From assembly GCF_020085105.1 (NCBI RefSeq), contig NC_058053.1, forward strand, positions 24,413,196-24,477,195: 64,000 bases of DNA, in the 5' to 3' direction. The stretch's first letter is position 1; each line of letters starts with the position of its first letter. Origin of the DNA: Siniperca chuatsi (lineage: Eukaryota). Below the pieces are notes generated by a model. That model did not search any database, had not been told where the DNA came from, and saw only the letters and a program-made list of their open reading frames with translations. Shown one piece after another: positions 1-64,000 of the stretch. The translations under genes and the position numbers were made by a program.

Positions 1-356
1 ATCTTAAATGTTACGATAGGTCTTGAGAATGATTTTGTGTCTTCAAAACTTTAAGAAGGTGGTTTGTGAGAATGTTTTGTGGAATTACAGTATGTCACGA
101 GTAGCATTATGCTAAAACAACAACAGAGAGGCCAATGTTTAATCCATAGTGTTAAAACATGGACATAGTGGTAGGTTTCTTAAGGTTGTTATAAAGCCTG
201 AAGTTGGGATTAAAAGTTGCCACAATACTATCTGCATAAAACCCAAATATGTGCAATGTCGAGCTTGTTTGGAGCTGAAATGGGTCAAGCAGGCACAACA
301 TACTTCGCTTAATATATTCGCAATAGAAACATAAATGTCAAATCAGACTGTTGCAC

Positions 357-646
357 CTTCTGCAGCGAGTCTGTCAGACGCTCCAGGCGAGGACGCAGGC
401 GCACCGAGACCAGCTCTCGGATGCGGTCTCCATGACGATCAATAACATCCCGGGTGGGGCAGCAGCGGTGGTCACGGTGCAGTGTGGCGGCACACTCCAG
501 GCAGACGGGTAGGTCGCAGGGCTGACAGAAGAGCCGGAGCTCCTGGCCGGGGTGGAGGGAGCAGAGGACGGGGCGGCAGAGACGACCGCGAGTCTTCAGC
601 TCCTCCAGACACTGAACAGAGTGAGATGCTGTTCGCTTCTGCCGCC
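357..646 (-). CDS. trim45: TRIM45 exon 2 (B-box type 2 plus start of coiled-coil). The gene continues beyond the left edge of the window. The 3' boundary is uncertain and could run on to 309.
   Basis: Minus-strand ORF 309-677 encodes CSLHPGQELRLFCQPCDLPVCLECAATLHRDHRC (B-box2 C/H spacing) followed by heptad-like DRHGDRIRELV...LERLTDSLQKV. It aligns with human TRIM45 ...LCPVHPAEELRLFCEFCDRPVCQDCVVGEHREH.... The acceptor tgtctgcag|GCGGCAG is at 646 and phase-matches exon 1 (AG+G). A candidate donor AAG|GTGCAA is at 357. Confidence 0.7.
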
Positions 647-1221
647 TGCAGACAGGAGAGAGAGCAGATACAGACATGTCTGCATGTCAGAATAAACATC
701 CAATTCAGCCTCAGATCTGGTAAAAATATAGCCGGAGATCAGACGTTACCTGCTACTGGCTGGAAGAGAATACAACTGAACATAATATAACTTAAACATA
801 AACTTAAAATAGAACTTCACACGTGCTCTCTGTACCTGTGTCAGCACAAAATAGAATAGAGTAGAACTTAGCTCTGAGCTTGACAGAGTAGAAATGAATT
901 AAGCTTTTAAGTGTGAAAGCTCAAAAGAGTTTCTATTCTTCTATTTTCCAGCAAAAATACCAAACACTCGCTGGTTAAGTGTGAAGAGTTGAAGCTTTTC
1001 TTTCTCATGTGATAGCAAACAATGTCACTGGATTTTAGACTGATGGTTGGATAAAGACGAGCAAATTCAAAACACAAAAAAAAATTAATTAACCAAGTCA
1101 ATGAGCTGCAGATTTATTGATGATGAAAATCATCGTTAGTTGAAGCCCTACAACAGAACCTCACCTATCTGAGCATCACAGCATCAGATAGAATAAATTA
1201 AAACAAAACCTACCTGCGAGC

Positions 1222-1335
1222 TTGACAGTGGTAGAAGTACTAATCACACTGAAAATACTCCAGTGCATGTAAAAGTCCTGCATTCAAAACCTTACTTATG
1301 TCAAAGTAAGTATTATCAGCAACATTTAAGTATTG
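1222..1335. mobile_element. Fragment of a TIR DNA transposon family (CAGTGGTAGAAGTAC... with acttaagtaaaag motifs) inside TRIM45 intron 1
   Basis: It shares the terminal motif family with the elements at 7940-8748 and 9478-9952. Confidence 0.3.
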
Positions 1336-1532
1336 AAAGAAGTTATACTATTACATGTTGTGTTTCTGGATTAATATTACTGCTGCGTTAGTGTGTATGT
1401 TGCATTTTATTGCTGTAGATGTTTAAGGTTGAGCTAATTGTAAACTACTTTAGTTACTGTTGGGTAGTTTAATCTACAGCAATGCATCATATTCCACTGC
1501 ATGCAGCGGTGGAAGCCGGACAGACTCTACCT

Positions 1533-1994
1533 GTGCGCCTGACAGCAGAACTCGCACAGGTTGACGCAGCAGACCTCGCAGCGGCTCTCGGCGCCTCCTT
1601 CGCCGCACAGGTCGCATCCCAGCGGGCCGTCCGTCACCAGGGTCTCCAGGAACACTTCGTCCAGCGCCAGGTGGTCGGTGCTCAGCCCATCCGGTCCCGA
1701 CGGAGGGATGTCTACCTCGGAGTCACAGTCGGGACAGAGCACCGTGACGGTGACGGCGACGGCGGGTCGGTCCTCCTCCACCGCTTCGCCTCTGCGCGAA
1801 GACACCGAGAACGGCTCCAGCTGGCCGATACAGTCGGAGCAGAAGGTGTGCAGACATGGGAGGATTTTAGGGTCCCGGAACAAGCGTTTACAAACGTTAC
1901 AAACCGCCCTCGGGTTCACCGAGACTCCGCTGTGCTCATGTTCCGAGACTAACGTTGGCTGCTCCGCGTTTTCTTTTTGGTCAGACTGCGACAT
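1533..1994 (-). CDS. trim45: TRIM45 first coding exon (Met, RING C3HC4, B-box type 1)
   Basis: Minus-strand ORF reads MSQSDQKEN...CNVCKRLFRDPKILPCLHTFCSDCIGQLEPFSV...LCPDCDSEVDIP...TDHLALDEVFLE...CDLCGEGGAESRCEVCCVNLCEFCCQAHR. This is near-colinear with human TRIM45 (CLEQLEPFSV, LCPVCDAQVDLP, TIDHLAVNDVMLE, CDLC...RCQTCKANLCHFCCQAHR). ATG is at 1994-1992. The exon ends CAC AG|GTAGAG, with the donor GT at 1532-1531. Confidence 0.85.
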
Positions 1995-3333
1995 GGTCTG
2001 CTTTCGGTGACTTGTGGTGCCAAAAACAAAACCAGTAAATACCACTCTGAACCCCACCGAGCTCCACAAACCTGCCAGAACTGAAAGAAAACTTTTCTCG
2101 AACTTTCTTCTGCATTAAAACCGCTAATATGAAACTAAACATCCAGTTGTTGCACTGTGATGACAAACAAATATTTTAATTTCACCTCACTGATTAAAAT
2201 CCCACTTTTCTTCGGGAGAAGCAGGCTCCGTTCACTGCTCCATGAGCCATATGCCACCTCACTCACTACCGGGCCAATAGGAAGCCTCTCACGGACTATC
2301 AGGGGTGGTCCAAGGACTCTTTATTCCAGTCTGGGACTCCGACTGCTCCCATCTACTGGCAGGACAGAACATGTTTTCACTAGGACACTTCAGTATTTTT
2401 GTTTACTACAAAGCTGCTCGATAGCAGAAATAATCTTATTTTTGTATACTAATGCTGAGGTCAAGTTTAGATTTTTTTCCCCCTCTAATATTAACTTTAG
2501 AAAAAAAAAAGCACACCAGCACATTAGTGGTAATTAGATTAGCTACTTATATATATATATATATATAAAAAAAAATCGATAGTTGTTTTTTGTGGTGTGA
2601 ACTAATAAAAATATGCAATTTAAAAAATATATATATATATTTTTAATTTTAATTCCCCCCCTCCTTACCTGTAGTGCTGTTTATCCAATTGCCCAGTTTT
2701 GAAGTTATCAGCTTTAGAGATGTCTGCATTTTTGGAATATAATGACTGGATGGCACTCTGCTTGTGGGGCTCAAAGCACTAAAATATATAAATAAATGAA
2801 TAAATAAAAAAAATATAAAAACTTTTAAGATTTGTTGAGCAGTTTCATGTATGAACTATCAGTAGAAAGACAATTCCTACATGAAACTGCTCAACAAATC
2901 TGTGGCTTATCTTGAGTAATCTTGCTGACACTGTTTCATTTTCTCCACAAGGATGAGCGTTCATCCTATTTTATGTTGTACAGAAAGACAAATAAAAAAA
3001 AAAAAACCCAGCTCAAGCTAATTGGAATTAAGAAACGTTTACTGACAAATAATCTAGATGGAGCCTTCACTGAAAACATGATGTACATCTGAGAAAAGTA
3101 AAAAAGAAAAAGTAAACATTGACTGAGAAAATGCACCACAGAGTTAAATGGTGTTACATGGCAACAACACCCACTGTAATATATTAAAAAACAAATAATA
3201 TAATCTTCGGAAATGACTTATGTAGCTACTTTGAATCATCACTCCTGTCGAATTCTGAAAAAAAAAAAAAAAATCCTGTCACTGAATGCAACGCAGGCAC
3301 ACCCAGGTGCAGAGTTTGTGTGTGTGTGTGCGA

Positions 3334-28439: not shown

Positions 28440-28561
28440 TTCCCTTCAGTTCTCTTTTTTCCCCCGCGCACACACACACACACACACGCACACACCCCTA
28501 CACCTCTGGTCTCTGCACGCACACACACACACACACACACACACCCCTACACCTCTGGTCT

Positions 28562-28595
<34 letters not shown>

Positions 28596-28610
28596 CTACA
28601 CTTCTGGTCT

Positions 28611-28646
<36 letters not shown>

Positions 28647-28731
28647 CTACACTTCTGGTCTCTCTGCACCTACACCTCTGGTCTCTGCACGCACACACAC
28701 ACACACGCACACACCCCTACACTTCTGGTCT

Positions 28732-28765
<34 letters not shown>

Positions 28766-28822
28766 CTACACTTCTGGTCTCTGCACACACACACACACAC
28801 ACACCTACACCTCTGGTCTCTG

Positions 28823-28880
<58 letters not shown>

Positions 28881-32007: not shown

Positions 32008-32125
32008 TCTTAAATTTCCGACTTTCTTCTCAGAATATTACCCCCTCCCCCGGCTCCGTATTTTATTTTTTACAGCAATATTATAATCAAAATGTTATTA
32101 AAACATGCCAGATTTTTTGGGGTCC
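32008..32125. repeat. ~110-bp direct repeat, copy 2 (the partner is at 29090-29205)
   Basis: Same string as at 29090. The pair brackets the LINE, the poly(A) run and the (GT)n. Confidence 0.7.
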
Positions 32126-32865
32126 TCAGACACGTACAGGTTGGGGCGTCAGGTGAGGGCTTGAGGAGGAGGGTCCCATTAGGGGAATTGTTCCATCCAA
32201 ACAGAGCAAATGAACATCAGCAGTAAATGCTTCAAGATAAGGATGCTAATGCTAATGATTAGGAAGAAATTTAGTAATAATGGCATCACATGACTGTTAC
32301 TAGTTTATTAAAACTTCCCTTCTCTGATTGGAAAGCAGGAGAATCTATAATATAACAGAGGACATCACAGTCAGATAACAGTGTTCTGCTGTACTCAGAT
32401 CTTTATATAATGAATGTCAAACTTTTTATCAGAGCAGCTTCATCATATTATCACAGATGTTCTGACATCGTTTTATATTTGAAATATATATTAAGTGGTT
32501 GAACAGCATGTGGGTCAGTTTGTTGAATGATGGGAAATTAACTTTTTAAGATGAGCATCTGCCAGCCACTGACAGATTAATGTTCAAATTCAAAAGCCAC
32601 TCAATAATAAATCATTATTCTGTGTCTGAACTCTACCAGCCACTTTCATATCTTACCAGCATTTGGCTAGCTGGCTGCTGCTAATTTCCCAATAAAAACA
32701 AAATCAACTAGCAGCTGCCTTCGGCTCTGCTGGACTGTTAATTACATATATCTGAGTGATAAAGCCTCATTTTTCTTAGCTCTACGCGGATCATCATGAC
32801 AGACAATGCAGATAACAGAAAGTAACGTCATCTGAAACACACACCGACCAACTTACAGCTGTGCA

Positions 32866-32960
32866 TTAGCCATGCTATTAGCTTGGCAGTGCTATTAGCT
32901 TAGCCGTGCTATTAGCCTAGCCGTGCTATTAGGTTAGCCGTGCTATTAGCCTGGAGTACA
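32866..32960. repeat. 18-bp-period minisatellite (gccgtgctattagc[ct]tag), about 5 units
   Basis: Direct reading. Confidence 0.85.
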
Positions 32961-33521
32961 GAGTTGAATAAAACGGTTTAAACAGCATGAATTAGCTGGC
33001 TAATACAAAGCAATGATAAATAGTTTATATAATAAATTCCTTAGAGTAACATTCAAGTTTGACATTTTAAGACCTAGTTCATAAAGCTCCGGCAATAATG
33101 CTAACTTTATGCTGTAACATCGAGCACTCAACTATTTCACAAAGTGCCTTAAAACACCTCGGTTAGCTAACTATAACTAATGTCATTCAGAAATATGAGT
33201 GTTTAACGTGTTTCCCACAAATACTTAATAATAATAATTCATGAATATTTGACTTACCAACTCTTCTGCATCAGCTCCGCAGTCGACTGTCCGATGAGAG
33301 CGGAGAGACGCTGCGGGAGGTGAGCGGTTCGATCCCCGGCTCGGGCAAAGACGGAGACGCGCTTCAGTGGTTGTAAGGCTGTTTAACTGAGACATAATGG
33401 CTGTAGAATAGTGTGGGGTTTTACTAACTGATGTAGTAGATTAGCAAATAGTAAACATAGTATTCAAACAACACTATAAACAGTGAGAACTTCTTCTTCT
33501 TTTCCTTTCGGCTGTTCCCTT

Positions 33522-46650: not shown

Positions 46651-47142
46651 ACGTCAGTCCAGTCTTCTCTCTGTTCAGTTCTGTGGGTTTTTACATATTG
46701 TTGTAAATAAACTTTCTGCACAATCTGCACTTTGTTTGGAAGCTTTATTATTTCTGATGCATTACTCGACTTTTGACACGTAAACATGACATTTAACTGC
46801 AACACGTCAATAAAACACAACATGGATGACTCACGCTGCTGCTGCTGACACACACTTCACAGGTTCAAAGGTCAAAGCTGTCTAGTGAGTTCTCAAATGT
46901 GCAAAGTGATGAAAAGTAAACAAACATGTCATTTATTAACATTAATAACAGAACTCAGTTGACTCTTTCAGCTCATGTGAATTAGAACAAAACACACCAT
47001 TAAATCTTCTCGTTGTTACACCTTTAATGCTGCAAATATGTTCTTGAAACATGATAAATACACACAGTGACGAAGCCTGTATATGAGCAGCAGAGTCTTT
47101 AATTGCTCGGGATTGTCATCAGAAATATATATATAAACTACG

Positions 47143-48112
47143 GAGGGCCAAGGCACCAGTGACCCCAGTTTCCATCCAGGGGGTCAGTGTGGACATTGTT
47201 GAGGAAGTACCTGGGAGTACACTTAGACAACAAACTGGACTGGGCCAAGAACACTCAAGCTCTGTACAGGAAGGGCCAGAGCCGCTTCTATTTCCTGAGG
47301 AGGCTGAGGTCCTTCAACATCTGCCAGACAATGCTGAGGATGTTTCATGAGTCTGTGGTGGCCAGTGCTGTCCTGTATGCTGTTGCATGCTGGGGCAGCA
47401 GGTTGAGTGTAGCGGACGCCAACAGACTCAACAAACTGATCCGTAAGGCCAGTGACATTGTGGGGGTGGAGCCGGACTCTCTGGCGGTGGTGTCAGAGAG
47501 GAGGATGCTGGCCAAACTACATGCCATCTTGGACAGTGTCTCCCACGCACTCCATGACGTGCTGGTCAAGCAAAGGAGCACCTTCAGCGGAAGACTCATC
47601 CCCCCACAATGCACCACAGAGCGCCACAGGAAGTCATTCCTGCCTGTGGCCATCAAACTCTTTAACTCCTCCCTCTAAGTGTTAGTCTGTATGACCCTAA
47701 GTCACTAAACTGGACATTGATCATTACATCTCTGCAATACTTGAAACAATCGTGCAATATTCTGTGTAATACTCCTGTGCAATATTTAGTTTTTCCTATT
47801 TATTATTCATACCTCCATTACTGCTGTTGCACTACTACTTATTACTTATATTATTACATTGCATTATTATACCATATTATCATCATCAACCGGTAAACCC
47901 ACTTGGTACTGCACACTTATTTTATTTTAGACTTATACCCACCTGGTACTTAATTTATTTTCTGACCTGTTTTTATAGTTTTAGAGTGTATTGTATTATA
48001 TTTTTTTGCTAGTACTTTCTCCTGTGTGCACTGACGTAAAGGCGAGCTGCTGTAACAAAGACTTTCCCTTGGGGGATCAATAAAGTCTTTCTGATTCTGA
48101 TTCTGAAAAAGA
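47143..48112 (+). mobile_element. LINE 3' fragment (RT C-terminal domain, 3'UTR and (TTCTGA)n tail) forming the 3' end of unit A
   Basis: ORF 47187-47678 reads ...YLGVHLDNKLDWAKNTQALYRKGQSRFYFLRRLRSFNICQTMLRMFHESVVASAVLYAVACWGS.... The tail ttctgattctgattctga is at 48090-48107. Confidence 0.75.
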
Positions 48113-48139
48113 GCCAACTGAGTCAATGAACTGTCGCCT

Positions 48140-48368
48140 CAACTCTGGCCAATGGCCTTCTCGGAGATGTCCCGCCCCTTCCAATCACCGCACAGTATTT
48201 GTTCCCGTTAGGCAAAACACACAGCCAATCAGATGGCTGAATTTGTTCCAATTGCGAGAATCAATGTTTTTGGCATCCAATGGGAGAAGCGGATTTGTTC
48301 CAATTTCTCTCAGTGATCCCGCCTCCTGCAAGCGGACTTTTTACTGCCGCAGAGACAGAAGCAAGTCG
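48140..48368 (+). promoter_or_regulatory. CCAAT-dense module S1 (unit B)
   Basis: Duplicate of 41228-41456. The donor is at 48369. Confidence 0.5.
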
Positions 48369-49126
48369 GTGAGTGAAGCATTTGTCAATTATTATGAAGT
48401 ATTGGACGGAAAACATGTTAAAAACTTATAATTCCGTCTGACATTAGTCATACTGAGCTAACCGAGGTGTTTGTATGTTGTGAAATAGTTGAGTGACGGA
48501 TGACACAGCGTAAAGTTAGAGCATTATTAGTTCTTACAATGTCAGACTTTAATTTTACTGTAAGGAATTTATTATATAAACGTTTTTATAAATTGCTTTG
48601 TTTTAGCCAGCTAACGTTCATGCTGTTAAAACCATTTTAAACACTGTACTGCAGGCTGATAGCATGCTAACACACCCACCGCTGTCGGCTGGTCGGTGTG
48701 TTTCATACTGCTTATGTGATTAACAGTCCAGCGGAGCTGAAGGCAGCCGGCATGTTTTATGGGGAAACTAGCAGCTGGTCGAGTGGCTGGTGGATTCCTT
48801 AAGCCTTTCTGTTCCACCAGGAGAGAAAGTGCAGCTCCTCACCTTATGAATATTCAATTAGCCATGCTGCCAGGAAGGTAAACAGAGGCGGAGCCTGCCA
48901 TAGGCAACAAGCGGAGAGAAACAACAGTCAAAAGGTCTCTTTTATTTACAGTTTTTACAATGTACAAAACATCTACTAAGACTCCACACTCTTCTGCAGT
49001 AATTCTGCCTCGGTTAAACTGTTTTAATACCCCCTGAAGCGCTTCTCCAGCTTTGCCACAGCCGGGGATCGAACCGCTGACCGCTGAGCCCCCTCCTCTT
49101 TTTACTCAGTCAATGAACTGTCGCCT

Positions 49127-49355
49127 CAACTCGGCCAATGGCCTTCTGCGGAGATGTCCCGCCCCTTCCAATCACCGCACAGTATCTGTTCCCGTTAGGC
49201 AGAACACACAGCCAATCCGATGGCTCAATTTGTTCCAATTGCGAGAATCAATGTTTTTGGCATCCAATGGGAGAAGCGGATTTGTTCCAATTTCTCTCAG
49301 TGATCCCGCCTCCTGCAAGCGGACTATTTACTGCCGCAGAGACAGAAGCAAGTCG
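49127..49355 (+). promoter_or_regulatory. CCAAT-dense module S2 (unit B)
   Basis: Duplicate of 42215-42443. The donor is at 49356. Confidence 0.5.
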
Positions 49356-49976
49356 GTGAGTGAAGCATTTGCCAATTATTATTAAGTATTGGACGGAAAA
49401 CATGTTAAAAACTTATAATTCTGTCTGGCATTAGTCATAATGAGCTAACCGAGGTGTTTGTATGTTGTGAAATTGTTGCCTGATGGATGACACAGCGTAA
49501 AGTTAGAGCCGGACCAGAGCGTTATTAGTTCTTACAATCTCAGATTTTAATTTTACTGTAAGGAATTTACTATATAAACGTTTTTATAAATTGCTTTGTT
49601 TTAGCCTGCTAACGTTCATGCTGTTTAAACCATTTTAAACACTGTACTGCAGGCTGATAGCATGCTAACACACCCACCGCTGTCGGCTGGTCGGTGTGTT
49701 TCATACTGCTTATGTGATTAACAGTCCAGCGGAGCTGAAGGCAGCCGGCATGTTTTATGGGGAAACTAGCAGCTGGTCGAGTGGCTGGTGGATTTAAAAA
49801 AGTCAATCTAAATATAGATTCTCCTGCTTTACAGAGTAAAAAACGTAAGTTTTAATAAACTAATAACAGTGACATGATGTCATTACTATGTCATTTCTTC
49901 ATAATGTTAGCATTTCCCGTTCCTTTCCCTTTAAAAGGAGGGCCCTAAGGTTTAACTTGTCTTTGTGAACTTGCAG

Positions 49977-52900
49977 GACGCCTTCACCCGCTACTCCTCA
50001 GCGTACCCTGACTTTGTGGAGGCAGTCAGGTTCCACCGGGCGTTTGAGGAGGCCCAGCAGAAGTCCCTCCAGCCCGGTCAGGAGGGACAGGCCCTTGTTG
50101 GCTTCGGGGACTTCAAATTCGAGACCCTGCAGAGCCTGTACGAGTCTGAGGACCCCAAAAAGATCCGGTATGTTGTAACAAAATGTGGATTATAATGTAG
50201 CTGCTGTACTGACCGGCGGTGATAAGAATGAAATGACAAACTGTCTGATTTACTTAGATTTGTCAACTACCTCCGGAGGAAGGCGCCAGCTCCCGACACG
50301 CAGATGGAGAACGCCGTCCGCCACGTCAGGAGCAGAGACAGGCAGAGAGCTGCTGCTGCTGCAACCGCCACCACTACGCTGCCGCAGCCGTTCCAACCAG
50401 CAGCACCACCACCACCACCACAGCTGCAGCCACCGGCAGCAGCACAGCCTCTGTCTCGCCGCAAGCCAGGAGCCGGGAGTGCATCACAGCACGTGTTTTA
50501 TGTTAAAGCGGTCTGAGTTCGAGGAACCTGGAGGACCTTTCTGAAGACATGTCAGTGTTTGTCGTGTTGTTACATTATATATGTTGTGTGTACTTTTGTC
50601 TTGTTACAGGTTTGCGGCCTTCGCCTCTGGGCGGCGTTCTCTGTCTGCGGTGGAGATGCAGGCAAAGATCAAGAAGCCGGTGCTGCCTAAGCCTGCGTCT
50701 CCAGGTGAGTCCAGCCTGAAGTAAACACACAGTTAAACTTCATCGGATTTCTTGTGCTCACATTTTTTGTTTCTTGTCTCTCGTCGGGTGATTACAGCTT
50801 CCTTCAGACCAGCTCCTCCCTCAACACCATCCGAGGAGCCTTCAGATGAAGAGCTGGTCAGGGCGGCAGTTGACGTCGAGCAGTGTAAGTAAAAAGTATT
50901 ACATATTCATGTAACATGTTGTTAATAACAGAAAGACTTGAATTCATGTTTGACTCCCCTTTTTATTTTGCTTCATAAATGTTTCCGTAATCAGAAGGAC
51001 AGGAAATGTCAGGGTAAGTTTGGTTAAATGAAAACCCTGTAGCTTCTGCCTGTCTCTAATCACTAACCCACACGCCGGCCAATCACCTGTCAGAACATCA
51101 CTAACGAGCGCACCCTGCAGAGTCACAGTTTCTTCATCATCCCGTCACCTGCGTAACTCCTCCAGCTGCTGCCTGCTTCCTCAGCGAGTCTAATGTGTTT
51201 CTCATAATTTTGTCTCACCTCGCTTTCTCTCTTGAACCGCCTTCTCTGCTCCTGCGGTGTTCATGCAGCTTGGCTGAGCGTCTGCCCGTCGTTCACTGTT
51301 AACACACAAATCTAATTCTTTCCTGTTACCGAAACATTTTATTTCTCTTTAAGCCCCAGATGTACAGCCCCCTCTCTCGCTCCTGCAGCATCCACCTCCC
51401 GCCACCACCTCAGCAGCGCCACAGAAGGGGGCCGGTGTCTCTGCTGTGCTGGACGAGCCCACAGACGAGGAGCTTCTGGAGGACACACTGGAGCGAGACC
51501 ACCCCCTGCGACCTCCAGCAGCCCTCGTCAAGGTCCAGCCTGCAGAGCCACCAGCTCCCTCACTGCAGCTGCCACCGCCTGCTCCTGCCCCGGAGGAATG
51601 ACGACAGGAGGAGTTGCCCGGGCCAGCCTTCCTCCCTCCCCCGCCACCTGCTGGCAGTGCTGAGGTAAGGCTGTTTGTCTAACAGTAAACTTTACTCATC
51701 CGGCCTCAGATGTCACTGCTGCCCTGAGATATTAAAGGACCCTGCGTGTTCCTCTGGTTCTCTCTCCAGCTGCTGCCCGAGTCCTGGCGGGCAGCTCTCA
51801 CTGTGGAGCAGCAGCAGTGGATCGGTCGGGTGCTGTTTACCAGGGACAGCAGGGGGAGGCCTCGGCTCATCGGTGAGCTGAATCTCTGGTGGTACCCCCC
51901 CAAACCCGGCCGATCTACCACCAGCCTCCCACGTCCCCCGACCCCTTCTTTGCATGTCGGCTGTTCTTCTGGATGCCACACCGGATCTGGCATCTGCAGC
52001 TGACATGCCCCCAGCCTTTGTCATGGACCCTGTGCACAAAGGCTGGGGGAAAGGAGCACTTAACAAATCCTCTGCTTCCTGTTTTTGCTCTGTGACAGGA
52101 GAGCTCATCGGGGTGGAGTTCCTCTACTGGCAGATGGGCAGAGTGCTTGAGGACGTCAGCTTGGACCCTGACACTCCGGACGAGGCTGCTGGCATCCAGT
52201 CGCTCGAGGAGGTGGATGGGGGTATCGAGGAGGACGTTGAGGACCCCACCGTCTTCCAGCCCGATACCCCGTCCACCAGCGCAGCGGCGGCACCCTGGTC
52301 AGGTGATCCAGCTGACGCACCCAGGTCTGAGCCATCCGGTCCGACCGCCCCTGACCAAGATGCCCCTCCCGAGGCCCCTGAGGTTCAAGCTCCTGCTCCC
52401 CAGCAGCCCTCCTCAGACTCTGAGGTAAGTTCACTAAGAAACTACTACTGATGATGATGATGATAATATTGATAATAACAACAATGTTCGTCCCTCTTTC
52501 CTTTTCTTTTCCTCGTTTCTGGTGTTTCCTCTCAGGAGGAGATGCAGGGGTCGTGACGGCCAGCCGGGATATCAGCATGTCCTGAAGCCGGCCCAGGCCC
52601 TGCTGGAAGCACGGAGCCTTCAGGGGCTTTCTGACAGGAGAGTGGACAGACTCATCGCAACGCCTGCCAGAGCAGGACAAACAGAGAGTCGTCTACCCTC
52701 CCAGCCCGAGGTTGATGGCTCAGACCGAAATCCAGCTCTTTGAGCTGAACCAGAGGACCCTGTCCCGATGGTGAGTTTAACAGGCAGCTGTGTCGATGTG
52801 CTGTAATTGGTACTGTGACTGAACGTTTAATAAAAGCTGAAGAGACTAAAAACGGCCTGTTTGTCTTTCAGGTTCTCTCGACGCCAGAAAAGAGAGGGGA

Positions 52901-53560
52901 GGGCTGTGCTGGAGCAGGGAACTGGTGTCGTCCCTGCTCCAGCTGTTGTTGCTCCAGCCTCTCCTCCAGCGAAAGGGCTGTCCTCTGTGCAGGTGGGACA
53001 AGGACAGCCCTTTCACTTTGACGCCCCCGAGGAGCAGCCGGGACTGTCTAATTGGGGTCTGCTTCCTCGCCCTCCCACTCCAGATGAGGAGCTGCCCGGT
53101 CCCTCACATGGTGGCCTTCTCCCTCCTCCTCCAGCACCGCTCCACCCACCGACACCGTCACGTCTGCCCCTGCTGCTCAGCCTCCTCCTCTTCCTGCAGC
53201 CCAGCGTGTGCCCAGGACCACGGCATACAGGAAGAGAAAGGCGGCCCAAGCGGCTGCTGCTGGGGGTCACGCTGCCCGGCAGACGTTACAGTACACCTGC
53301 AGCAAGTGTGGCCAGCCCTAGAGGATCGACACTGGCCACACTCGCATTGCAGGTGTGTCTTACTGTGCGGCTGTCGGAGGGAAAACTGTGGAGGACTGTA
53401 TGGAGGAGATGAAGAGGAGACCAGTAGGGGACAGAGGGGGACTGAGGGACTTTTTAATTATTTTATTTGTTTATTTCATACATTTTATAGGACATTTTTA
53501 CCTGGTTTCCTTTTTTGGTTGGATGTGGAATCATGTGAGTGTTGGTGTCACCTGATGAAC
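49977..53560 (+). pseudogene. Array ORF unit copy B (exons at 49977-50167, 50258-50488, 50610-50704, 50798-50884, 51354-51664, 51770-51872, 52099-52424, 52536-52770 and 52871-53560). Disabling differences relative to copy A are present.
   Basis: Exon 3 has three separate 1-nt deletions and the donor is changed from GT to GC (catcacagCacgtg). Exon 9 has +1 G, producing an early TGA. It shares the exon-6 in-frame TGA (51599-51601). Confidence 0.5.
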
Positions 53561-54050
53561 GTCAGTCCAGTCTTCTCTCTGTTCAGTTCTGTGGGTTTTT
53601 ACATATTGTTGTAAATAAACTTTCTGCACAATCTGCACTTTGTTTGGAAGCTTTATTATTTCTGATGCATTACTCGACTTTTGACACGTAAACATGACAT
53701 TTAACTGCAACACGTCAATAAAACACAACATGGATGACTCACGCTGCTGCTGCTGACACACACTTCACAGGTTCAAAGGTCAAAGCTGTCTAGTGAGTTC
53801 TCAAATGTGCAAAGTGATGAAAAGTAAACAAACATGTCATTTATTAACATTAATAACAGAACTCAGTTGACTCTTTCAGCTCATGTGAATTAGAACAAAA
53901 CACACCATTAAATCTTCTCGTTGTTACACCTTTAATGCTGCAAATATGTTCTTGAAACATGATAAATACACACAGTGACGAAGCCTGTATATGAGCAGCA
54001 GAGTCTTTAATTGCTCGGGATTGTCATCAGAAATATATATATAAACTACG

Positions 54051-55022
54051 GAGGGCCAAGGCACCAGTGACCCCAGTTTCCATCCAGGGGGTCAGTGTGG
54101 ACATTGTTGAGGAAGTACCTGGGAGTACACTTAGACAACAAACTGGACTGGGCCAAGAACACTCAAGCTCTGTACAGGAAGGGCCAGAGCCGCTTCTATT
54201 TCCTGAGGAGGCTGAGGTCCTTCAACATCTGCCAGACAATGCTGAGGATGTTTCATGAGTCTGTGGTGGCCAGTGCTGTCCTGTATGCTGTTGCATGCTG
54301 GGGCAGCAGCAGGTTGAGTGTAGCGGACGCCAACAGACTCAACAAACTGATCCGTAAGGCCAGTGACATTGTGGGGGTGGAGCCGGACTCTCTGGCGGTG
54401 GTGTCAGAGAGGAGGATGCTGGCCAAACTACATGCCATCTTGGACAGTGTCTACCACGCACTCCATGACGTGCTGGTCAAGCAAAGGAGTACCTTCAGCG
54501 GAAGACTCATCCCCCCACAATGCACCACAGAGCGCCACAGGAAGTCATTCCTGCCTGTGGCCATCAAACTCTTTAACTCCTCCCTCTAAGTGTTAGTCTG
54601 TATGACCCTAAGTCACTAAACTGGACATTGATCATTACATCTCTGCAATACTTGAAACAATCGTGCAATATTCTGTGTAATACTCCTGTGCAATATTTAG
54701 TTTTTCCTATTTATTATTCATACCTCCATTACTGCTGTTGCACTACTACTTATTACTTATATTATTACATTGCATTATTATACCATATTATCATCATCAA
54801 CCGGTAAACCCACTTGGTACTGCACACTTATTTTATTTTAGACTTATACCCACCTGGTACTTAATTTATTTTCTGACCTGTTTTATAGTTTTAGAGTGTA
54901 TTGTATTATATTTTTTTGCTAGTACTTTCTCCTGTGTGCACTGACGTAAAGGCGAGCTGCTGTAACAAAGACTTTCCCTTGGGGGATCAATAAAGTCTTT
55001 CTGATTCTGATTCTGAAAAAGA
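54051..55022 (+). mobile_element. LINE 3' fragment forming the 3' end of unit B
   Basis: Duplicate of 47143-48112. Confidence 0.75.
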
Positions 55023-55049
55023 GCCAACTGAGTCAATGAACTGTCGCCT

Positions 55050-55278
55050 CAACTCTGGCCAATGGCCTTCTCGGAGATGTCCCGCCCCTTCCAATCACCG
55101 CACAGTATTTGTTCCCGTTAGGCAAAACACACAGCCAATCAGATGGCTGAATTTGTTCCAATTGCGAGAATCAATGTTTTTGGCATCCAATGGGAGAAGC
55201 GGATTTGTTCCAATTTCTCTCAGTGATCCCGCCTCCTGCAAGCGGACTTTTTACTGCCGCAGAGACAGAAGCAAGTCG
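55050..55278 (+). promoter_or_regulatory. CCAAT-dense module S1 (unit C)
   Basis: Duplicate. The donor is at 55279. Confidence 0.5.
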
Positions 55279-56036
55279 GTGAGTGAAGCATTTGTCAATT
55301 ATTATGAAGTATTGGACGGAAAACATGTTAAAAACTTATAATTCCGTCTGACATTAGTCATACTGAGCTAACCGAGGTGTTTGTATGTTGTGAAATAGTT
55401 GAGTGACGGATGACACAGCGTAAAGTTAGAGCATTATTAGTTCTTACAATGTCAGACTTTAATTTTACTGTAAGGAATTTATTATATAAACGTTTTTATA
55501 AATTGCTTTGTTTTAGCCAGCTAACGTTCATGCTGTTAAAACCATTTTAAACACTGTACTGCAGGCTGATAGCATGCTAACACACCCACCGCTGTCGGCT
55601 GGTCGGTGTGTTTCATACTGCTTATGTGATTAACAGTCCAGCGGAGCTGAAGGCAGCCGGCATGTTTTATGGGGAAACTAGCAGCTGGTCGAGTGGCTGG
55701 TGGATTCCTTAAGCCTTTCTGTTCCACCAGGAGAGAAAGTGCAGCTCCTCACCTTATGAATATTCAATTAGCCATGCTGCCAGGAAGGTAAACAGAGGCG
55801 GAGCCTGCCATAGGCAACAAGCGGAGAGAAACAACAGTCAAAAGGTCTCTTTTATTTACAGTTTTTACAATGTACAAAACATCTACTAAGACTCCACACT
55901 CTTCTGCAGTAATTCTGCCTCGGTTAAACTGTTTTAATACCCCCTGAAGCGCTTCTCCAGCTTTGCCACAGCCGGGGATCGAACCGCTGACCGCTGAGCC
56001 CCCTCCTCTTTTTACTCAGTCAATGAACTGTCGCCT

Positions 56037-56265
56037 CAACTCGGCCAATGGCCTTCTGCGGAGATGTCCCGCCCCTTCCAATCACCGCACAGTATCTGTT
56101 CCCGTTAGGCAGAACACACAGCCAATCCGATGGCTCAATTTGTTCCAATTGCGAGAATCAATGTTTTTGGCATCCAATGGGAGAAGCGGATTTGTTCCAA
56201 TTTCTCTCAGTGATCCCGCCTCCTGCAAGCGGACTTTTTACTGCCGCAGAGACAGAAGCAAGTCG
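56037..56265 (+). promoter_or_regulatory. CCAAT-dense module S2 (unit C)
   Basis: Duplicate. The donor is at 56266. Confidence 0.5.
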
Positions 56266-56887
56266 GTGAGTGAAGCATTTGCCAATTATTATTAAGTATT
56301 GGACGGAAAACATGTTAAAAACTTATAATTCTGTCTGGCATTAGTCATAATGAGCTAACCGAGGTGTTTGTATGTTGTGAAATTGTTGCCTGATGGATGA
56401 CACAGCGTAAAGTTAGAGCCGGACCAGAGCGTTATTAGTTCTTACAATCTCAGATTTTAATTTTACTGTAAGGAATTTACTATATAAACGTTTTTATAAA
56501 TTGCTTTGTTTTAGCCTGCTAACGTTCATGCTGTTTAAACCATTTTAAACACTGTACTGCAGGCTGATAGCATGCTAACACACCCACCGCTGTCGGCTGG
56601 TCGGTGTGTTTCATACTGCTTATGTGATTAACAGTCCAGCGGAGCTGAAGGCAGCCGGCATGTTTTATGGGGAAACTAGCAGCTGGTCGAGTGGCTGGTG
56701 GATTTAAAAAAGTCAATCTAAATATAGATTCTCCTGCTTTACAGAGTAAAAAACGTAAGTTTTAATAAACTAATAACAGTGACATGATGTCATTACTATG
56801 TCATTTCTTCATAATGTTAGCATTTCCCGTTCCTTTCCCTTTAAAAGGAGGGCCCCTAAGGTTTAACTTGTCTTTGTGAACTTGCAG

Positions 56888-57310
56888 GACGCCTTCACCC
56901 GCTACTCCTCAGCGTACCCTGACTTTGTGGAGGCAGTCAGGTTCCACCGGGCGTTTGAGGAGGCCCAGCAGAAGTCCCTCCAGCCCGGTCAGGAGGGACA
57001 GGCCCTTGTTGGCTTCGGGGACTTCAAATTCGAGACCCTGCAGAGCCTGTACGAGTCTGAGGACCCCAAAAAGATCCGGTATGTTGTAACAAAATGTGGA
57101 TTATAATGTAGCTGCTGTACTGACCGGCGGTGATAAGAATGAAATGACAAACTGTCTGATTTACTTAGATTTGTCAACTACCTCCGGAGGAAGGCGCCAG
57201 CTCCCGACACGCAGATGGAGAACGCCGTCCGCTACGTCAGGAGCAGAGACAGGCAGAGAGCTGCTGCTGCTGCAACCGCCACCACTACCGCTGCCGCAGC
57301 CGTTCCAACC
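56888..57310 (+). pseudogene. Array ORF unit copy C (exon 2 at 56888-57078 and the start of exon 3 from 57169), truncated at the junction with the anomalous block
   Basis: Exon 2 is identical to copy B. Exon 3 matches the copy-A variant. The sequence is cut after gccgttccaacc. Confidence 0.5.
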
Positions 57311-60300
57311 ATATTCATAAGATAAGTTAGTTAGCTAAGAAGAAACAGTAGTCAAGTCAGGTATGTTAGTGACAGGAGAGAAACAAAGTTTAGTTTGTCT
57401 ACTTGAATATAACTTTAAAGCATAGCTTTTATGACTAGAATAATTATAACTGTTTAGTACGCTTAACTAAAGTAACTTTAATGTAATTAGAATGTTCAAT
57501 AGCATTGTGGCAATAAATAGACTGTGAATTGTAGTTCAACTTACATCGCTTATGCGTGAATCCTCATGTGCCCATTCCAATCACCTTTGCAGACATGATG
57601 TTCACGTTGCATGCAATCCGCTCCATCAAGAGCATGGATTTTCCGTTGAATACAATGGATCGATGTCTCAATGCGATTGTCAGCAATTCAGACGAATTTG
57701 TCATTCTACGATTTGACATGGCGATGTCGCTATGACCAGATTCAGTTATGCATGAAGATCTGTCTAGAGTTAATTAAATTGACTGAATTTATATAGCAAA
57801 TCAGTAATTTATTTACATTTGAGTATAGTTAACGTGTTGAGTAGTGTTAGTTAACGTAGTTAGATTACTGTACGAAGTTAGATATGTATGAATTACTTGT
57901 AGACTTATCATTTATTTAAGATGCTTTTATGTAAATTAATCATGTTTAAGCATTAAGCTGATGACTAAGTTAAACATGTACAGCTACGCGTCGTGATTCA
58001 CATTGTGTGGTATATAGCAGGACTTATCAGCGAGCTAGCAGCGCTGTTGTGGTAACTGTAATGGCTTGATAACTTAGTCCACTATGATTCAGATGCAGTT
58101 CTACCTGTATATTAGTCCTGAGACAGCGATTCATTCCTGTAGCAGGAAGCACAGGTAGGTATCAGTAGCATGCTCACGTACTAAGCTCAGCCTCTAGTCG
58201 TCAGGTTACTAGTTTTAATACTACTCAGCCAGTAGCCACAACACTACGCTGACAGCTACCCCTTCGATGTTATTCTAACTGCTTGACCACTGGAGACGTT
58301 CGCTCATGACCAGACTTCCTTGACCGATCGAGTTGACCATGCACATGTTTCCAGCTGATGTGCCAATCTTCAGACGCATCGAGCCGACTATCGTAACGCC
58401 GTAAGCAGCACATGCATTTCGTAGAAACTAGCAAGTGCCAAGCATGTAATTACTGTTCCATTAGCACAAGCGAATCAGAGTCATATTGTCGATTGCCATA
58501 TTAATCGTTACAAGTTAGCTGTAAAGCGTTGTTAGTGCTCATGTCATGCAATCATTATAGGTATAGCATTAGTCGCTTCTGCAGTCGCTGAGCATTGACA
58601 GCGTTCAATGTGTAACCTGATGAAATTAAGTCTGAACTTGAGACATTGTCATAGTATCGGGTATGACTAGTTAATAGCCACTAACTATAGTTCTATGAAT
58701 CGATTACAGTATTAAAAGTCAATACTATAGATCTTACTATTAGTTTTAATACTTTCTTTACATGAACTTAGCTTTACTTTCTATATGCTACTGCATTCGA
58801 CATTCCGCTGCAAGGTGCTCGTGCTGTCGTTTGTTACAGCTACTGCGAGGCAGTCAGGTACTAGCGTCTGTGGTTACGGTATTAGAATCCGTCAGACGTG
58901 CTGTAGTCCTGGCTCTATGTCAGGTAAAGAAGTGTTATGAACTATCAAATTAATATGCATTCTACTGTCTCATATAAATAAGTTAGCTAATACGCGTGAT
59001 TTCTAGTTAAAGTCAGCTTACTATTAGTTAACTTTGAAGCAGTTCATACCACCGCTACTTCGCAGTCAGCCGCTCGTAGCAGCGTGTGCTCATCGGCACG
59101 GCCTCTCTGCGGACCACCCAGACAGACACAGGCTGGACGGCCTGTGTCATGACGGTTCAACGGTTAGTGACGCGACGCTGATACTGAGAGCACTAGACGG
59201 GTAGCTTGAGACTGCAATGTGGTCTGACGTGTGTTGGCTCATGTCATGATCGTGTCTCTAGCAGAGTCACTAGCGTCGATACGTAGTCAGGTAACAGTCG
59301 CTAATGACTGCGCCTACGCTGCAGATGTGAAGTACCGACAGTCTCATCGTAGTTCTAAGCCAGTAGATGCGACTTCTTCAACTGCAGCCTCTCACACCAT
59401 CTCCGTTCACGTCAGCACTTGTCAGCCTAGATTACAGCGCAGTCAGCCGCGCAGAAGCTTCGACTGCTGAGACAGGATGACAATTCGTTAGCTTCTCAGT
59501 GTCCTGATACAGTCGTTACTCACTGCTTGCCTGTTCGAGCTGACCAGTAGTTCGTTCGTAATGGGTAACTGCGTATGCATGCCGGACCTGAGCAGTCGGC
59601 GCTGTCGGAATGCTAACGCACCTGTCAAGTCTACTCAACAGCCTCGTCACTAGCTCAAGTCCCATCTACTCCTAGTGACTCAAGTCGCTTCCGATCTGAT
59701 TACGTGTCTTTAAGTGCCTCAGTCCTCCTGAACGCACTGCCTGCCTACAGCTCACGCATGTACACGCTCATGTGCGCGTGACCATTCACTTTAAGCACAA
59801 GAACCTTCCTTATCAGCCTATGACCTGCAGAGTCGCTCCTACGACATGCTCTCGCTCATGGCGATTCAGGCGTAGTTGTTAGCTGAGCGCACTGACGCTC
59901 TGCTGCGAGACCACTGTCAAGCCGTCGACCTGCCAGGCACGTCTCAGCTGACGCCAATCCCGTGACTTCCGCTCTAGCGACATGTAATCTGAGTGAGCTT
60001 CTGCATGCCTGCTCGTCCTCCTGCATCCTCGCACTGGTCATCGTAGCTGGTTCACTGCGTGCTGCGCTCTCGTCTCAGTAAGTCCCTCGTAAGTCCTGTC
60101 TTGTACACCACTGCTAAGCCCTCCTGGTTTCTGGCCTCCTTCAGCCAGCATGCTGCTCCGTAGCACGGACAGGATCGCGGGTTCAGTGCGCGGTACGCTA
60201 CTCCTGCTCCGAGACCGCCTCACCCAGACCACCCTGCCGCCAGCATGCCTTCTGCAGCGCGAGCTCAGGATGCAATGCATGCTGACAGCCCCAGCTGCAA

Positions 60301-63300
60301 GTCACCGCAGCTCCACTGCTGTCTGACCAGCTGGACGACTGGCTAGGATTGCGCAGTCGCTGCAGGATGTCTGTGGAGTCTAGGATGCGCGTGTCTCGGT
60401 ATGTTGATCGCTGACTGCTGTCCATGCGCAGTTAGCGAGCCAGCTCGCGTCGTCCCGTACCGTACGCTCGATGTCTGCACCACTGCATGCAGGCTCCGGC
60501 TCGGTACCCTCCCGTGCACGGCCAGCTGACAGTCAGCTCCTTCAGCTGCCCTACAGTCGACCTACTCAGTCCTGTGCAGCTCCCTACTTGCAGCCGTCGT
60601 TGAGCTCGTCAGTCTGATGTAATCTCTGCATTACGAAGTTGGTCCACCTGTATCGCGCGTTACTCGACTTGTCTGCCTGGTCCCAGCACGGATCTAGGCT
60701 GCCAGCGTGCCCCGGCTTCTCGGACTGCCTGACAGGCCACGAAGCTGCACTCGCTCAGCCTAGCAGTGCGCTCGACAGGTGCACTAGCCTGGAGGCGCCT
60801 GCAGATCGCAGTGCTGTCTGCGACTGACGTCTGCTCGCGACGTCTGCCGCGATCAGCTGCGAGACTGAGCGAGCTAGCCAGCTCGCAGCTGACAGACGCA
60901 GCCGTGGCGTCCTGCCGAGTCACGGCGACGTTCAGGAGGCTCAGACCCTAAGCAGCCTGGACTGCAACGATCTCTCCGAGGAGCTCACGGCAACTCTGTC
61001 ATGTCGCCCTCACACTGTTCTGCTACCTCCTACCGAGGACACGTGCTCCAGTCTGCTCCATCGTCTCACTCTCGCCGTGACGTCTGGCAGGCTGCTGGAG
61101 CTCCTCGTCTCGCTACGTGCCACGACCAGTCTGTGCGTCCTAGGACAGCCAGTCCAGGCCTCCAGGTCTACGGAAGCAGCGCGACTCCGTGCCCACCATG
61201 GCTCGCCTGTCCACCACTGCGAGCTGCGATCTTCTCGCTCGCGTGCGCTAGCGACTGCATGACGTCTGGATCATGGACTGAACGTGTACAGTAGACAAGA
61301 GGATCAATCGCATGTTCAGTCATCTCGGCTTGACGTTAGCTGGACTGAGCTTGGACAGGAATGTGCTCCCTGTTCAGTGCTCTACGCGCTCTCGATGTGC
61401 TACATTCTTATGGCAGACTTGAGCATTGCTCTGTGACGTCGACTTAGGGAGCTAAGCCTGACAGGCTGAGGCAATGCTCTGCAGTGCTCCGTCCATGTAG
61501 TATGGAAGTACGTCTATGGTGCTCTCTCCGACAGCTGTGCCAAGTGACACAACGATGACCTATCACGCTCATGCCGATCAGTAGCCGTTACATGCTCATG
61601 TCTAGAACATAACTCAGCCACTCGAGCACTCACCGTTCGAACGTCCAGTATTTCCTAGCGATCAACCGTTGGACGACAGAACGACACTGATGCACTGTAA
61701 GCTGTGACTCAGCTCTGCTTGAAACTTGCCTGCCAAGATATCTGTACCTAGAGTCTGCTGAGTCCACAGTCATGGGATACTAGAAGTGACTGCTCAACTC
61801 TGAAGCCATACTCCTTCAGACAATTTATCCTAGCATGAATACTGATCGCTTAGGCTGCATTGTATGCAGATGCGTGTAGTGTACCTGTACATATGTTCAC
61901 GACTGGCAGCTCTGGACGGATCCAGACTGGGCTGCAGTTGCGCATGTGAAGATGGCCAAACTAGCACAATTCTCATGTTCATGACGTGAGGACGTCTGCA
62001 CTGCTCTGATAGTTTGACACGAGTCTGCAGCTGCACTTGCTACTCCGACATAGCTGTGACAGCTCTAAACTAACTAGTCATCTTCTAGCATCTGAATGCT
62101 GATATTTGATAAACTGGCATTTATAGTACAACTATGAGCACGACCTTGCTGTCACTCATTAGTACTAGCGACTTTGCAATATTATCACTACGAACAGTGT
62201 GACACTATGTCTTACGTATCACGTGCAATCTGTTTGCAGTGAAGCTTAATGTAAATACGACATTGTACTCGTAAGCTCTGGTAGCAGTTTCAGACCTTAA
62301 TTCTCATTCTGTCTTGAATGATGAAGCGACGTGCACTGATCTCATGACTTAACAGCATGTCATGCCATCTACCGTCACGTTGCATGCCAATAGTGCATTC
62401 CATGTCTATATCATGTGAGCCATCATGAAGTTCCAGATTTTCACTGTCTGGCTAGCGGTCTAAGACTGGACAATTGATCAGATTGCATACTGACTGAGTA
62501 CTTAACTCGTCGCAGCCTGACAGTTCAGCTGGAGTGTACTCGTCTAGGCGATGCTGCATTGCAGCAGCTCACGAGCTGGTTCAGCAGGAGCATGCAAGTC
62601 ACTATGACAAATCTGTAAGTCACTTAGCTGACTATCGAATCGTAACTCTCTAGTGAGTCTAGACTCAGCTACTGGCATTCTCACACTGCTTGACGTAATC
62701 AACTGATGATTTCTAGGAACTGCATGTGCTGATCTGGTTCCTGGCTGACATGGTATCCAGAGTATGCTAGGATACTCTCATTAACTATTCAGATTAGTCT
62801 TCTGACAGTAGTAACATGCTGGTCATTACACGTTTAGACAATAACTTATTTGACAGTTATGACACCTGTAACTATATTCTATTAATCTACGCTCCACGTT
62901 ACTGCTAAGCTATGTATTACGTCGCTAGCACTGATCATCTATAGACCTTCGATATGATCTCGCTGCTTCTGCATAAACTTACTAGATTCATTCTGACAGA
63001 GCAACGTAGCTAATTCCATGGAACTTGGACAATGTACCATGTTGATTAGTTCTTCTATCATATTGTCCAGAAGCATAGCCAGATCTCTTTCAGACATGAT
63101 GGACTGTATCTAAGCTATTGTCACATTGAAATTCGTCTGTTGTGAAATTTGCTGATATTTGCTGATAGAGCACAGACTTTGACTTAGTACGTTCTACTGA
63201 AGCCGAATTGTGATTAGTACGTTTTAATATAAATGTACAAGTAATCATTACTATAATTTCTCGTTACATGCTGAAGTCATGTAATACGCATTCGCTGATC

Positions 63301-64000
63301 AGTTTTATAGCAATACGTGTGACTGTTGCAACTCATTAGAGTGATAGCAGAGTGAACTAAGGCTGAGTTTAGGCATGAACTGTCTCAAGATTCGAGTTAA
63401 AGCAACTTCAGATGTCATAGTGATTGAGATAAAGCATCGTTGAGATCACTGAGAGGCTATTCATTTACTGTAAGACACCGACTTCGTGTAATTTCACTGA
63501 CCTAAAGCGTACTGCTGGATGCTTGCATTACGACTGAGACTGTAGAGATCTACTGATCGTTCACTGTGCTTGATCTAGCCGGTGAGTGCTCTCACTCGAT
63601 GACTTTAGCAACGACTGACATTGCGCAGTAGTACCGACGCCTGGTCTATATGTAATCAAGTAAATCTATGTAACTAGCCTGCAGTAGACATTGCATAGAC
63701 TACACAATGAGACATCTCGATGTCGTATGCAGTCGATAGACTCTCTGAATGAGCCACTACTGTGCTGATACGCATCCATACGCGAGACTCCTACCTGGAC
63801 TGCAGCAGAGCACCGTGGACTCAGCCACTAGCATCATTCCTGCCAGTAGACGTCATTCGAGAACAGTTAAGCTGCCACTGCTTGGATACTACTGTAATCT
63901 AGTATCTGTAGTTACTAATGACTTGTAACGTTTGCTTGAACAACTTACGTGCTACTCTTCGAGTGTCTCCTGACTGATCTAAGCTTCTGTACTGCTGTCT
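57311..64000. other. Compositionally anomalous block of unknown origin (random-like or foreign). It has no repeats or microsatellites and no ORF over 100 aa. CpG is not depleted, and GC rises to a maximum near 59-61.3 kb.
   Basis: The junction at 57310/57311 is abrupt and falls in the middle of an exon of unit C. There is no poly-N, no simple repeat and no TE homology to the rest of the window. CG dinucleotides are frequent (acgcgtcgtg, cgatcgagttgacc, cgctcgtagcagcgtg), whereas the rest of the non-exonic window is CpG-poor. Homopolymer runs of 5 or more are essentially absent. The longest ORF is 97 aa. Confidence 0.6.

Follow-up and report, generated by a model that had tools for sequence, protein, structure and literature searches.

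A 64,000-nucleotide stretch of DNA from the mandarin fish Siniperca chuatsi (contig NC_058053.1 of assembly GCF_020085105.1; hereafter the window) ends in some 6.7 kb of sequence that do not resemble what precedes them, raising the question of what this block is and how it came to interrupt a fish gene. The original prediction, made from the letters alone, held that the sequence switches at 57310/57311 to DNA foreign to its context, with no assignable function and possibly artificial, and every test that we conducted agrees with this description. The anomalous block (57312-64000), which runs off the end of the window and thus has its 3' terminus outside it, is an artefact without biological mechanism or function, and it is probably non-biological, generated pseudo-random filler that was joined to truncated but real S. 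chuatsi sequence.

The window's first 57.3 kb are genuine percomorph fish DNA. A head-to-tail array at 42178-57311 consists of ~6.9-kb units that start near 42178, 49090 and 56000 and that are 99.6-99.7% identical over the 1.3 kb compared. The exon translations of these units are 100% identical to two S. chuatsi proteins, P0024 ('vegetative cell wall protein gp1-like') and P0029 (LOC122885820), while a third one from this species, P0002, shows 96% identity, and relatives are present in many percomorphs. A three-way alignment revealed that unit 3 follows the other two units almost base for base as far as ...GCCGTTCCAACCA, which brings the agreement to window base 57311, with ...CCGTTCCAACCA being the last shared bases; beyond them unit 3 diverges completely and continuity with its paralogous units is lost. 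In BLAST, too, the last query base to match units 1 and 2 is 1312, corresponding to window base 57311, placing the predicted switch correctly to within 1-2 bases, an uncertainty that stems from the last 'CA', which could belong to either side. The break lies mid-exon, since the exon of the real S. chuatsi protein (P0024, P0029) runs past this point as ...AAAAVPTSSTTTTTT...: read across the break, the protein is ...AAAAVPT SSTTTTTTAAATGSS... in S. chuatsi, whereas the reading frame of the window yields ...VPT-IFIR and then a stop, meeting a TAA four codons past the break.

The third unit, the junction and the four parts of the block, with their observed/expected (o/e) ratios for homodinucleotides (AA, TT, CC and GG), are laid out as follows:

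56000-57311, plus strand: start of the third ~6.9-kb unit, real fish sequence, 99.6-99.7% identical to 42178-43486 and 49090-50399, cut mid-exon after ...AAAAVPT
57311-57312, no strand: junction between real and anomalous sequence; alignment of units 1-3 identical through ...TCCAACCA, then without similarity
57312-57750, no strand: block part 1, AT-rich (27-42% GC), loosely intron-like, with mild homopolymer avoidance (homodinucleotide o/e ~0.82-0.91)
57751-59040, no strand: block part 2, AT-rich sequence alternating with patches of moderate GC, intermediate homopolymer avoidance (homodinucleotide o/e 0.64-0.70)
59041-61280, no strand: GC-rich core (58.6% GC), non-coding, strongest homopolymer avoidance (homodinucleotide o/e 0.45-0.59)
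61281-64000, no strand: tail (36-51% GC) with the same statistics, reaching the window end (homodinucleotide o/e 0.47-0.70)

Same-base avoidance and base composition of the block

Homopolymer runs set the block apart from the fish sequence. We counted 104, 12 and 0 runs of 3, 4 and at least 5 bases, respectively, versus 245, 66 and 26 expected from composition-preserving local shuffles, whereas no 6.7-kb window of fish sequence contains fewer than 28 runs of at least 5. The predicted scarcity of such runs is thus borne out, with none in 57312-64000 against ~26 expected. All four homodinucleotides are depleted in the block (AA 0.69, TT 0.71, CC 0.58 and GG 0.43), while TpA, with an o/e of 1.00, is not. 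In PMC11282364, values of 0.78-1.23 are given as the usual non-significant range for dinucleotides and TpA under-representation is described as general in natural DNA. As natural controls we used 183 windows of 6.7 kb with GC contents of 34-62%, drawn from E. coli K-12, phage T4, mycobacteriophage L5 and the fish part itself, and found homodinucleotide o/e values of 0.84-1.1 and TpA values of 0.34-0.87, compared to 0.62 and 1.00 in the block; none of the 183 windows comes near the block values. When the fish part is divided into 500-bp windows, homodinucleotide o/e drops below 0.85 in only 5 of them (lowest 0.46).

The avoidance extends beyond the adjacent base. Relative to local composition, same-base identity in the block has an o/e of 0.60, 0.81 and 0.95 at lags 1-3 and returns to ~1.0 from lag 4 onwards, whereas in fish DNA it is 1.01-1.10 at every lag. 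The block therefore departs from natural DNA on TpA depletion, on homodinucleotide o/e and on non-negative short-range autocorrelation alike. The effect is graded along the block, with homodinucleotide o/e declining from ~0.88 (57.3-57.75 kb) to ~0.67 (57.75-59.0 kb) and then to ~0.53 for the rest.

These properties do not fit the earlier proposal that the block behaves like low-order-Markov random sequence, as it has far fewer homopolymers than random sequence and dinucleotide-preserving shuffles fail to reproduce it. A first-order Markov chain is ruled out by the identity at lag 2, which is 0.209 in the block versus 0.272 ± 0.005 in such shuffles (z = -11.7): if self-transitions are rare, a first-order chain should raise lag-2 identity, but the block shows less. 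Relative to these shuffles the block is also depleted in runs of at least 3, 4 and 5 bases (z = -4.2, -3.9 and -2.9) and in distinct 6-mers (z = -5.0), while stop triplets are in excess (z = +4.2). The deviations in lag-2 identity and runs show that at least second-order memory is needed. DNA simulated from a first-order Markov chain does resemble the block in its conditional entropies (1.90-1.94 bits at orders 1-3, near those of fish control segments) and in its lack of long repeats, and differs from it in precisely the lag-2 identity (z = -11.7) and the runs of at least 3 (z = -4.2). The most diagnostic point, which the original prediction missed, is that the block is less repetitive than random sequence and not merely as random. 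Lag 1-3 identity, the run-length spectrum, TpA o/e and the comparison with dinucleotide-preserving shuffles can together flag sequence that is fabricated or junk, with no alignment required.

Several other derivations were considered and rejected. All four rotations of ACTG (ACTG, CTGA, TGAC and GACT, 54-75 copies each) are among the commonest 4-mers of the block, and a decayed (ACTG)n microsatellite was rejected with a lag-4 identity of only 1.01. An excess of palindromic hexamers, considered as a design signature, is not significant (z = 1.8). Fish sequence that has been shuffled, reversed or complemented was also rejected, as run lengths survive such transforms and dinucleotide content survives shuffling, yet the block differs from the host in both respects. 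Nor is the block a homopolymer-compressed read, in that runs of 2-4 remain, the CpG level differs and the block no longer resembles the other units at all.

Base composition changes along the block on the kilobase scale. GC content is 0.35-0.46 at 57.3-59 kb, 0.52-0.64 at 59-61.3 kb and 0.36-0.51 thereafter, so that the rise and fall that had been described is real as a trend; it is not smooth, as had also been claimed, but bumpy at the 100-bp scale (0.27-0.66), with the 100-bp profile of 57751-59040 running from 0.29 to 0.52. CpG was said to be as frequent as GpC, but the counts are 321 and 492 (o/e 0.86 and 1.31). What holds of that claim is the weaker depletion: the proposed calculation of CpG o/e gives 0.86 for the block (0.68-0.97 in sub-blocks) versus 0.48 in the remaining 57.3 kb, and the CpG depletion expected of vertebrate host DNA is missing from the block. 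CpG o/e is 0.97 in the AT-rich beginning (57312-58000, 33% GC), compared to about 0.4 in fish AT-rich DNA, with values of 0.90 in the GC-rich core, where GpC o/e is 1.25, and 0.68-0.75 in the tail.

The beginning of the block also carries motifs that resemble splice donors. A donor-like GTCAGGTA is located at 57356 in part 1, and the donor-like hexamer CAGGTA occurs 5 times in the first 2 kb of the block (at 58152, 58855 and 58921 in part 2) versus 0.42 expected, a count reached in 0 of 1000 shuffles, and nowhere later; since this hexamer was chosen post hoc, after being seen, its excess carries modest weight.

Searches for coding, repeated and foreign DNA

The block matches nothing else in the window: the best BLAST match to the rest is 34 nt long at E = 0.008, which is chance level and upholds the predicted lack of similarity. 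Internal or terminal direct and inverted repeats in the block were likewise limited to matches of chance size (22-34 nt). Simple repeats are scarce, as predicted, with 2 weak rows in the block reported by Tandem Repeats Finder (TRF) versus 105 in the first 57.3 kb; the sole repeat in the tail is one 2.5-copy 10-mer. The microsatellites, homopolymer runs and relics of transposable elements that recur every few kb in the host are absent.

No coding capacity could be discerned. The longest start-to-stop open reading frame (ORF) of the block encodes 97 aa, consistent with the claim that none exceeds 100 aa, and the longest stop-to-stop frame (144 codons) conforms to the random expectation from shuffles (155 ± 32). 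The signal of 3-base periodicity is 0.7-2.0, compared to 5.9-6.2 in an exon-rich control from the fish part; the GC-rich core, where it is 0.8-1.3, contains the 97-aa ORF as its longest. Pfam searches with the ten longest ORFs of the block returned only a chance-level match to RE_HaeIII (E = 0.056, 13 bits against a cutoff of 25), and those with all six full-length frames, stops masked, returned zero families, whereas the fish part, serving as positive control, gave an ALKBH8_N match at E = 3e-11. The block thus has neither the long ORFs nor the periodicity nor the protein families of bacterial or viral coding DNA. It does not resemble structured RNA or rDNA either, as Rfam gave 0 matches in the block at E <= 1 and ARAGORN 0 tRNA genes.

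Nucleotide searches with the whole block by blastn found no match among 72,556 plasmids or 50,697 phages, and megablast found none in 5,426 E. coli genomes. Five exact 20-24-mers were absent from metagenome, prokaryotic-genome and viral contigs, a weak test in that it needs an exact word.

These results bear on the possibility that the block is natural foreign or mobile DNA, either a recent non-coding insertion or a contaminant from an unsampled organism that interrupts the exon of unit 3. The sharp boundary, the lack of similarity to the host and the undepleted CpG are as expected of a recent arrival from a non-methylating genome, and with the 3' end of the block outside the window, terminal structures are only partly assessable. 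However, the 5' end of the block displays no terminal inverted repeats, long terminal repeats, poly-A or target-site features, and the six frames contain no remnants of a transposase, reverse transcriptase or integrase. The ORFs are at random expectation without periodicity, CTAG is present at 6.7 per kb compared to 1.4 per kb in the host, and the composition breaks near-universal traits of natural DNA, namely TpA depletion, a homodinucleotide o/e of ~1 or above and positive short-range autocorrelation. We consider this origin highly improbable, and the same compositional anomalies disfavour the recent insertion of non-vertebrate, non-coding DNA listed among the candidates in the original prediction. 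Very improbable, too, is that the mandarin fish itself, or DNA extracted together with its own, physically contains the block, be it as an unknown natural non-coding class shaped by the removal of same-base neighbours or through an engineered integration in the tandem gene array.

Candidate origins of the block

Of the three explanations originally put forward (an assembly chimera or contaminant join, a recent insertion, or an artificial segment), the artificial one fits best, given the negative recency at lags 1-3, the depletion of all four homodinucleotides, the TpA o/e of 1.00 and the absence of database matches. The source would then be a generator with local memory that avoids the base emitted one, two and, weakly, three positions before and that re-uses a limited vocabulary of short words. 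Subjectively random strings, produced by humans or language models, tend to show such 'negative recency' or alternation bias. The block is like them in that the last 1-3 symbols are avoided, long runs are missing, the word vocabulary is small and rotations of ACTG are frequent. Output of this kind would be typical of people, of text or language models and of design routines that penalise homopolymers. A naive random typist, by contrast, would yield neither the slow GC drift nor the donor-like motifs.

The course of the block would tell more about such a generator. Its base composition drifts slowly, starting AT-rich, passing through a GC-rich core and then returning, and the AT-rich stretches and CAG/GTA donor-like motifs of the first ~2 kb may be a loose imitation of gene structure. 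With distance from the junction this imitation seems to wane and homopolymer avoidance grows, as would happen in an autoregressive continuation that gradually strays from its prompt. We infer from this that the generator was autoregressive and continued from the real sequence. The filler may have arisen in silico, or it may reside in the deposited assembly. If the S. chuatsi record reads GCAGCACCACCACC... after ...CCGTTCCAACCA, the block was added after the fact and is in-silico filler.

Some points weigh against generated filler. The nucleotide collections that were searched did not include eukaryotic genomes, making the lack of matches compatible with an unsampled eukaryotic source, and the panel of natural controls is small, with four sources. 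Moreover, the block is not featureless: 10 of its 12-mers are seen twice, compared to 3.3 expected, and the kb-scale GC structure, the repeated short words and the CAGGTA excess constitute structure beyond noise, which fits an imitating generator without proving one.

Homopolymer avoidance also evokes DNA that was made by design, and rules for sequence design and DNA storage do impose homopolymer constraints. The block might accordingly be physically real, man-made DNA (a stuffer or spacer, a spike-in or data-storage-style DNA) that was joined as a contaminant or chimera. Homopolymer-constrained synthetic DNA shares with the block a maximal run of 4, penalised same-base repeats and the lack of repetitive structure and coding content, and no natural match was found in any collection searched. 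Yet design codes keep GC narrow, whereas that of the block is unbalanced (27-66% per 100 bp), and there are no repeated primer, index, adaptor or address words, no vector, marker or promoter ORFs and no match in the 72,556 plasmid records. Runs of 2-4 are thinned gradually instead of being cut by a hard cap, so that none of the hallmarks of constraint-coded DNA (hard cap, narrow GC and recurring blocks) is present. We regard this origin as very unlikely.

Alternatively, the fault could lie in the deposited assembly, the assembler having broken in the 99.6%-identical array and attached a junk read or contig, for instance base-called noise or a long read that was chimeric or of low quality, which then survived polishing. 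The break is indeed situated inside a near-identical 6.9-kb tandem array, where assemblies typically fail, the block matches and encodes nothing, and the 1-bp indels of the unit 2 exon relative to units 1 and 3 may reflect an imperfect consensus. An abrupt, base-precise switch inside a repeat array, beyond which nothing is related to the host, is also what assembly chimeras, contaminant joins and padding look like, but real contaminant joins normally consist of recognisable DNA from bacteria, vectors, mitochondria or other species, with natural composition and database matches. Artefacts of sequencing noise tend to be of low complexity and homopolymer-rich or homopolymer-truncated, and on general grounds they are not expected to exhibit graded avoidance at lags 1-3, kb-scale GC drift or splice-like motifs. 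Under-calling of homopolymers would not lift CpG o/e from 0.48 to 0.86 or erase the similarity to the other units, and 6.7 kb of junk would be unusual in an annotated, chromosome-level reference. A junk join is thus unlikely. Should the block sit in the public assembly nonetheless, the record would contain a mis-join that cuts short an annotated gene-family member within a tandem gene array.

With generated filler as the preferred explanation, the last 6.7 kb of the window are to be excluded from biological interpretation as a matter of quality control.

The tandem array and other features of the fish sequence

Each unit of the array (42178-57311) contains exons of an uncharacterised, low-complexity percomorph protein family rich in Ala, Thr, Ser and Pro, in which no Pfam domain was found. 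The exon of unit 2 (50293-50553) differs from that of unit 1 (43380-43640) by 1-bp indels at alignment columns 85, 195 and 206, with unit 3 (57205-57311) being comparable only at column 85. These indels shift the reading frame of unit 2, which is either pseudogenised or affected by errors in the consensus, the array being hard to assemble.

Other duplications surround these units. A ~690-bp segment of each unit has a duplicate with ~95% identity in the unit before it, lying some 1 kb upstream (56014-56704 versus 48117-48796 and 41227-41884), and an older inverted copy of the unit sequence, with 77-84% identity, is located at ~32-33 kb (32073-33235, minus strand). These segmental and inverted copies suggest several rounds of duplication at this locus. 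The ALKBH8_N match mentioned above lies within a tandem unit, in a 164-aa ORF at 54095-54589 (plus strand; E = 3e-11) that we interpret as the C-terminal end of an ORF for a LINE-type reverse transcriptase, presumably a retroelement relic.

Two further segments of the fish part have unusual composition. The beginning of the window (1-2000) is CpG-rich (o/e 0.80), with few homopolymer runs and a GC-rich, exon-like segment at ~370-700; it was considered as a second anomalous block and rejected, as its homodinucleotide o/e of 0.87-1.0 is that of ordinary exon-bearing fish DNA. At 28469-28877 a compound (CA)n microsatellite is interleaved with a minisatellite with a 47-49-bp unit (TRF score up to 586), and this (CA)n array is the only site in the fish part with a homodinucleotide o/e as low as that of the block (0.46).

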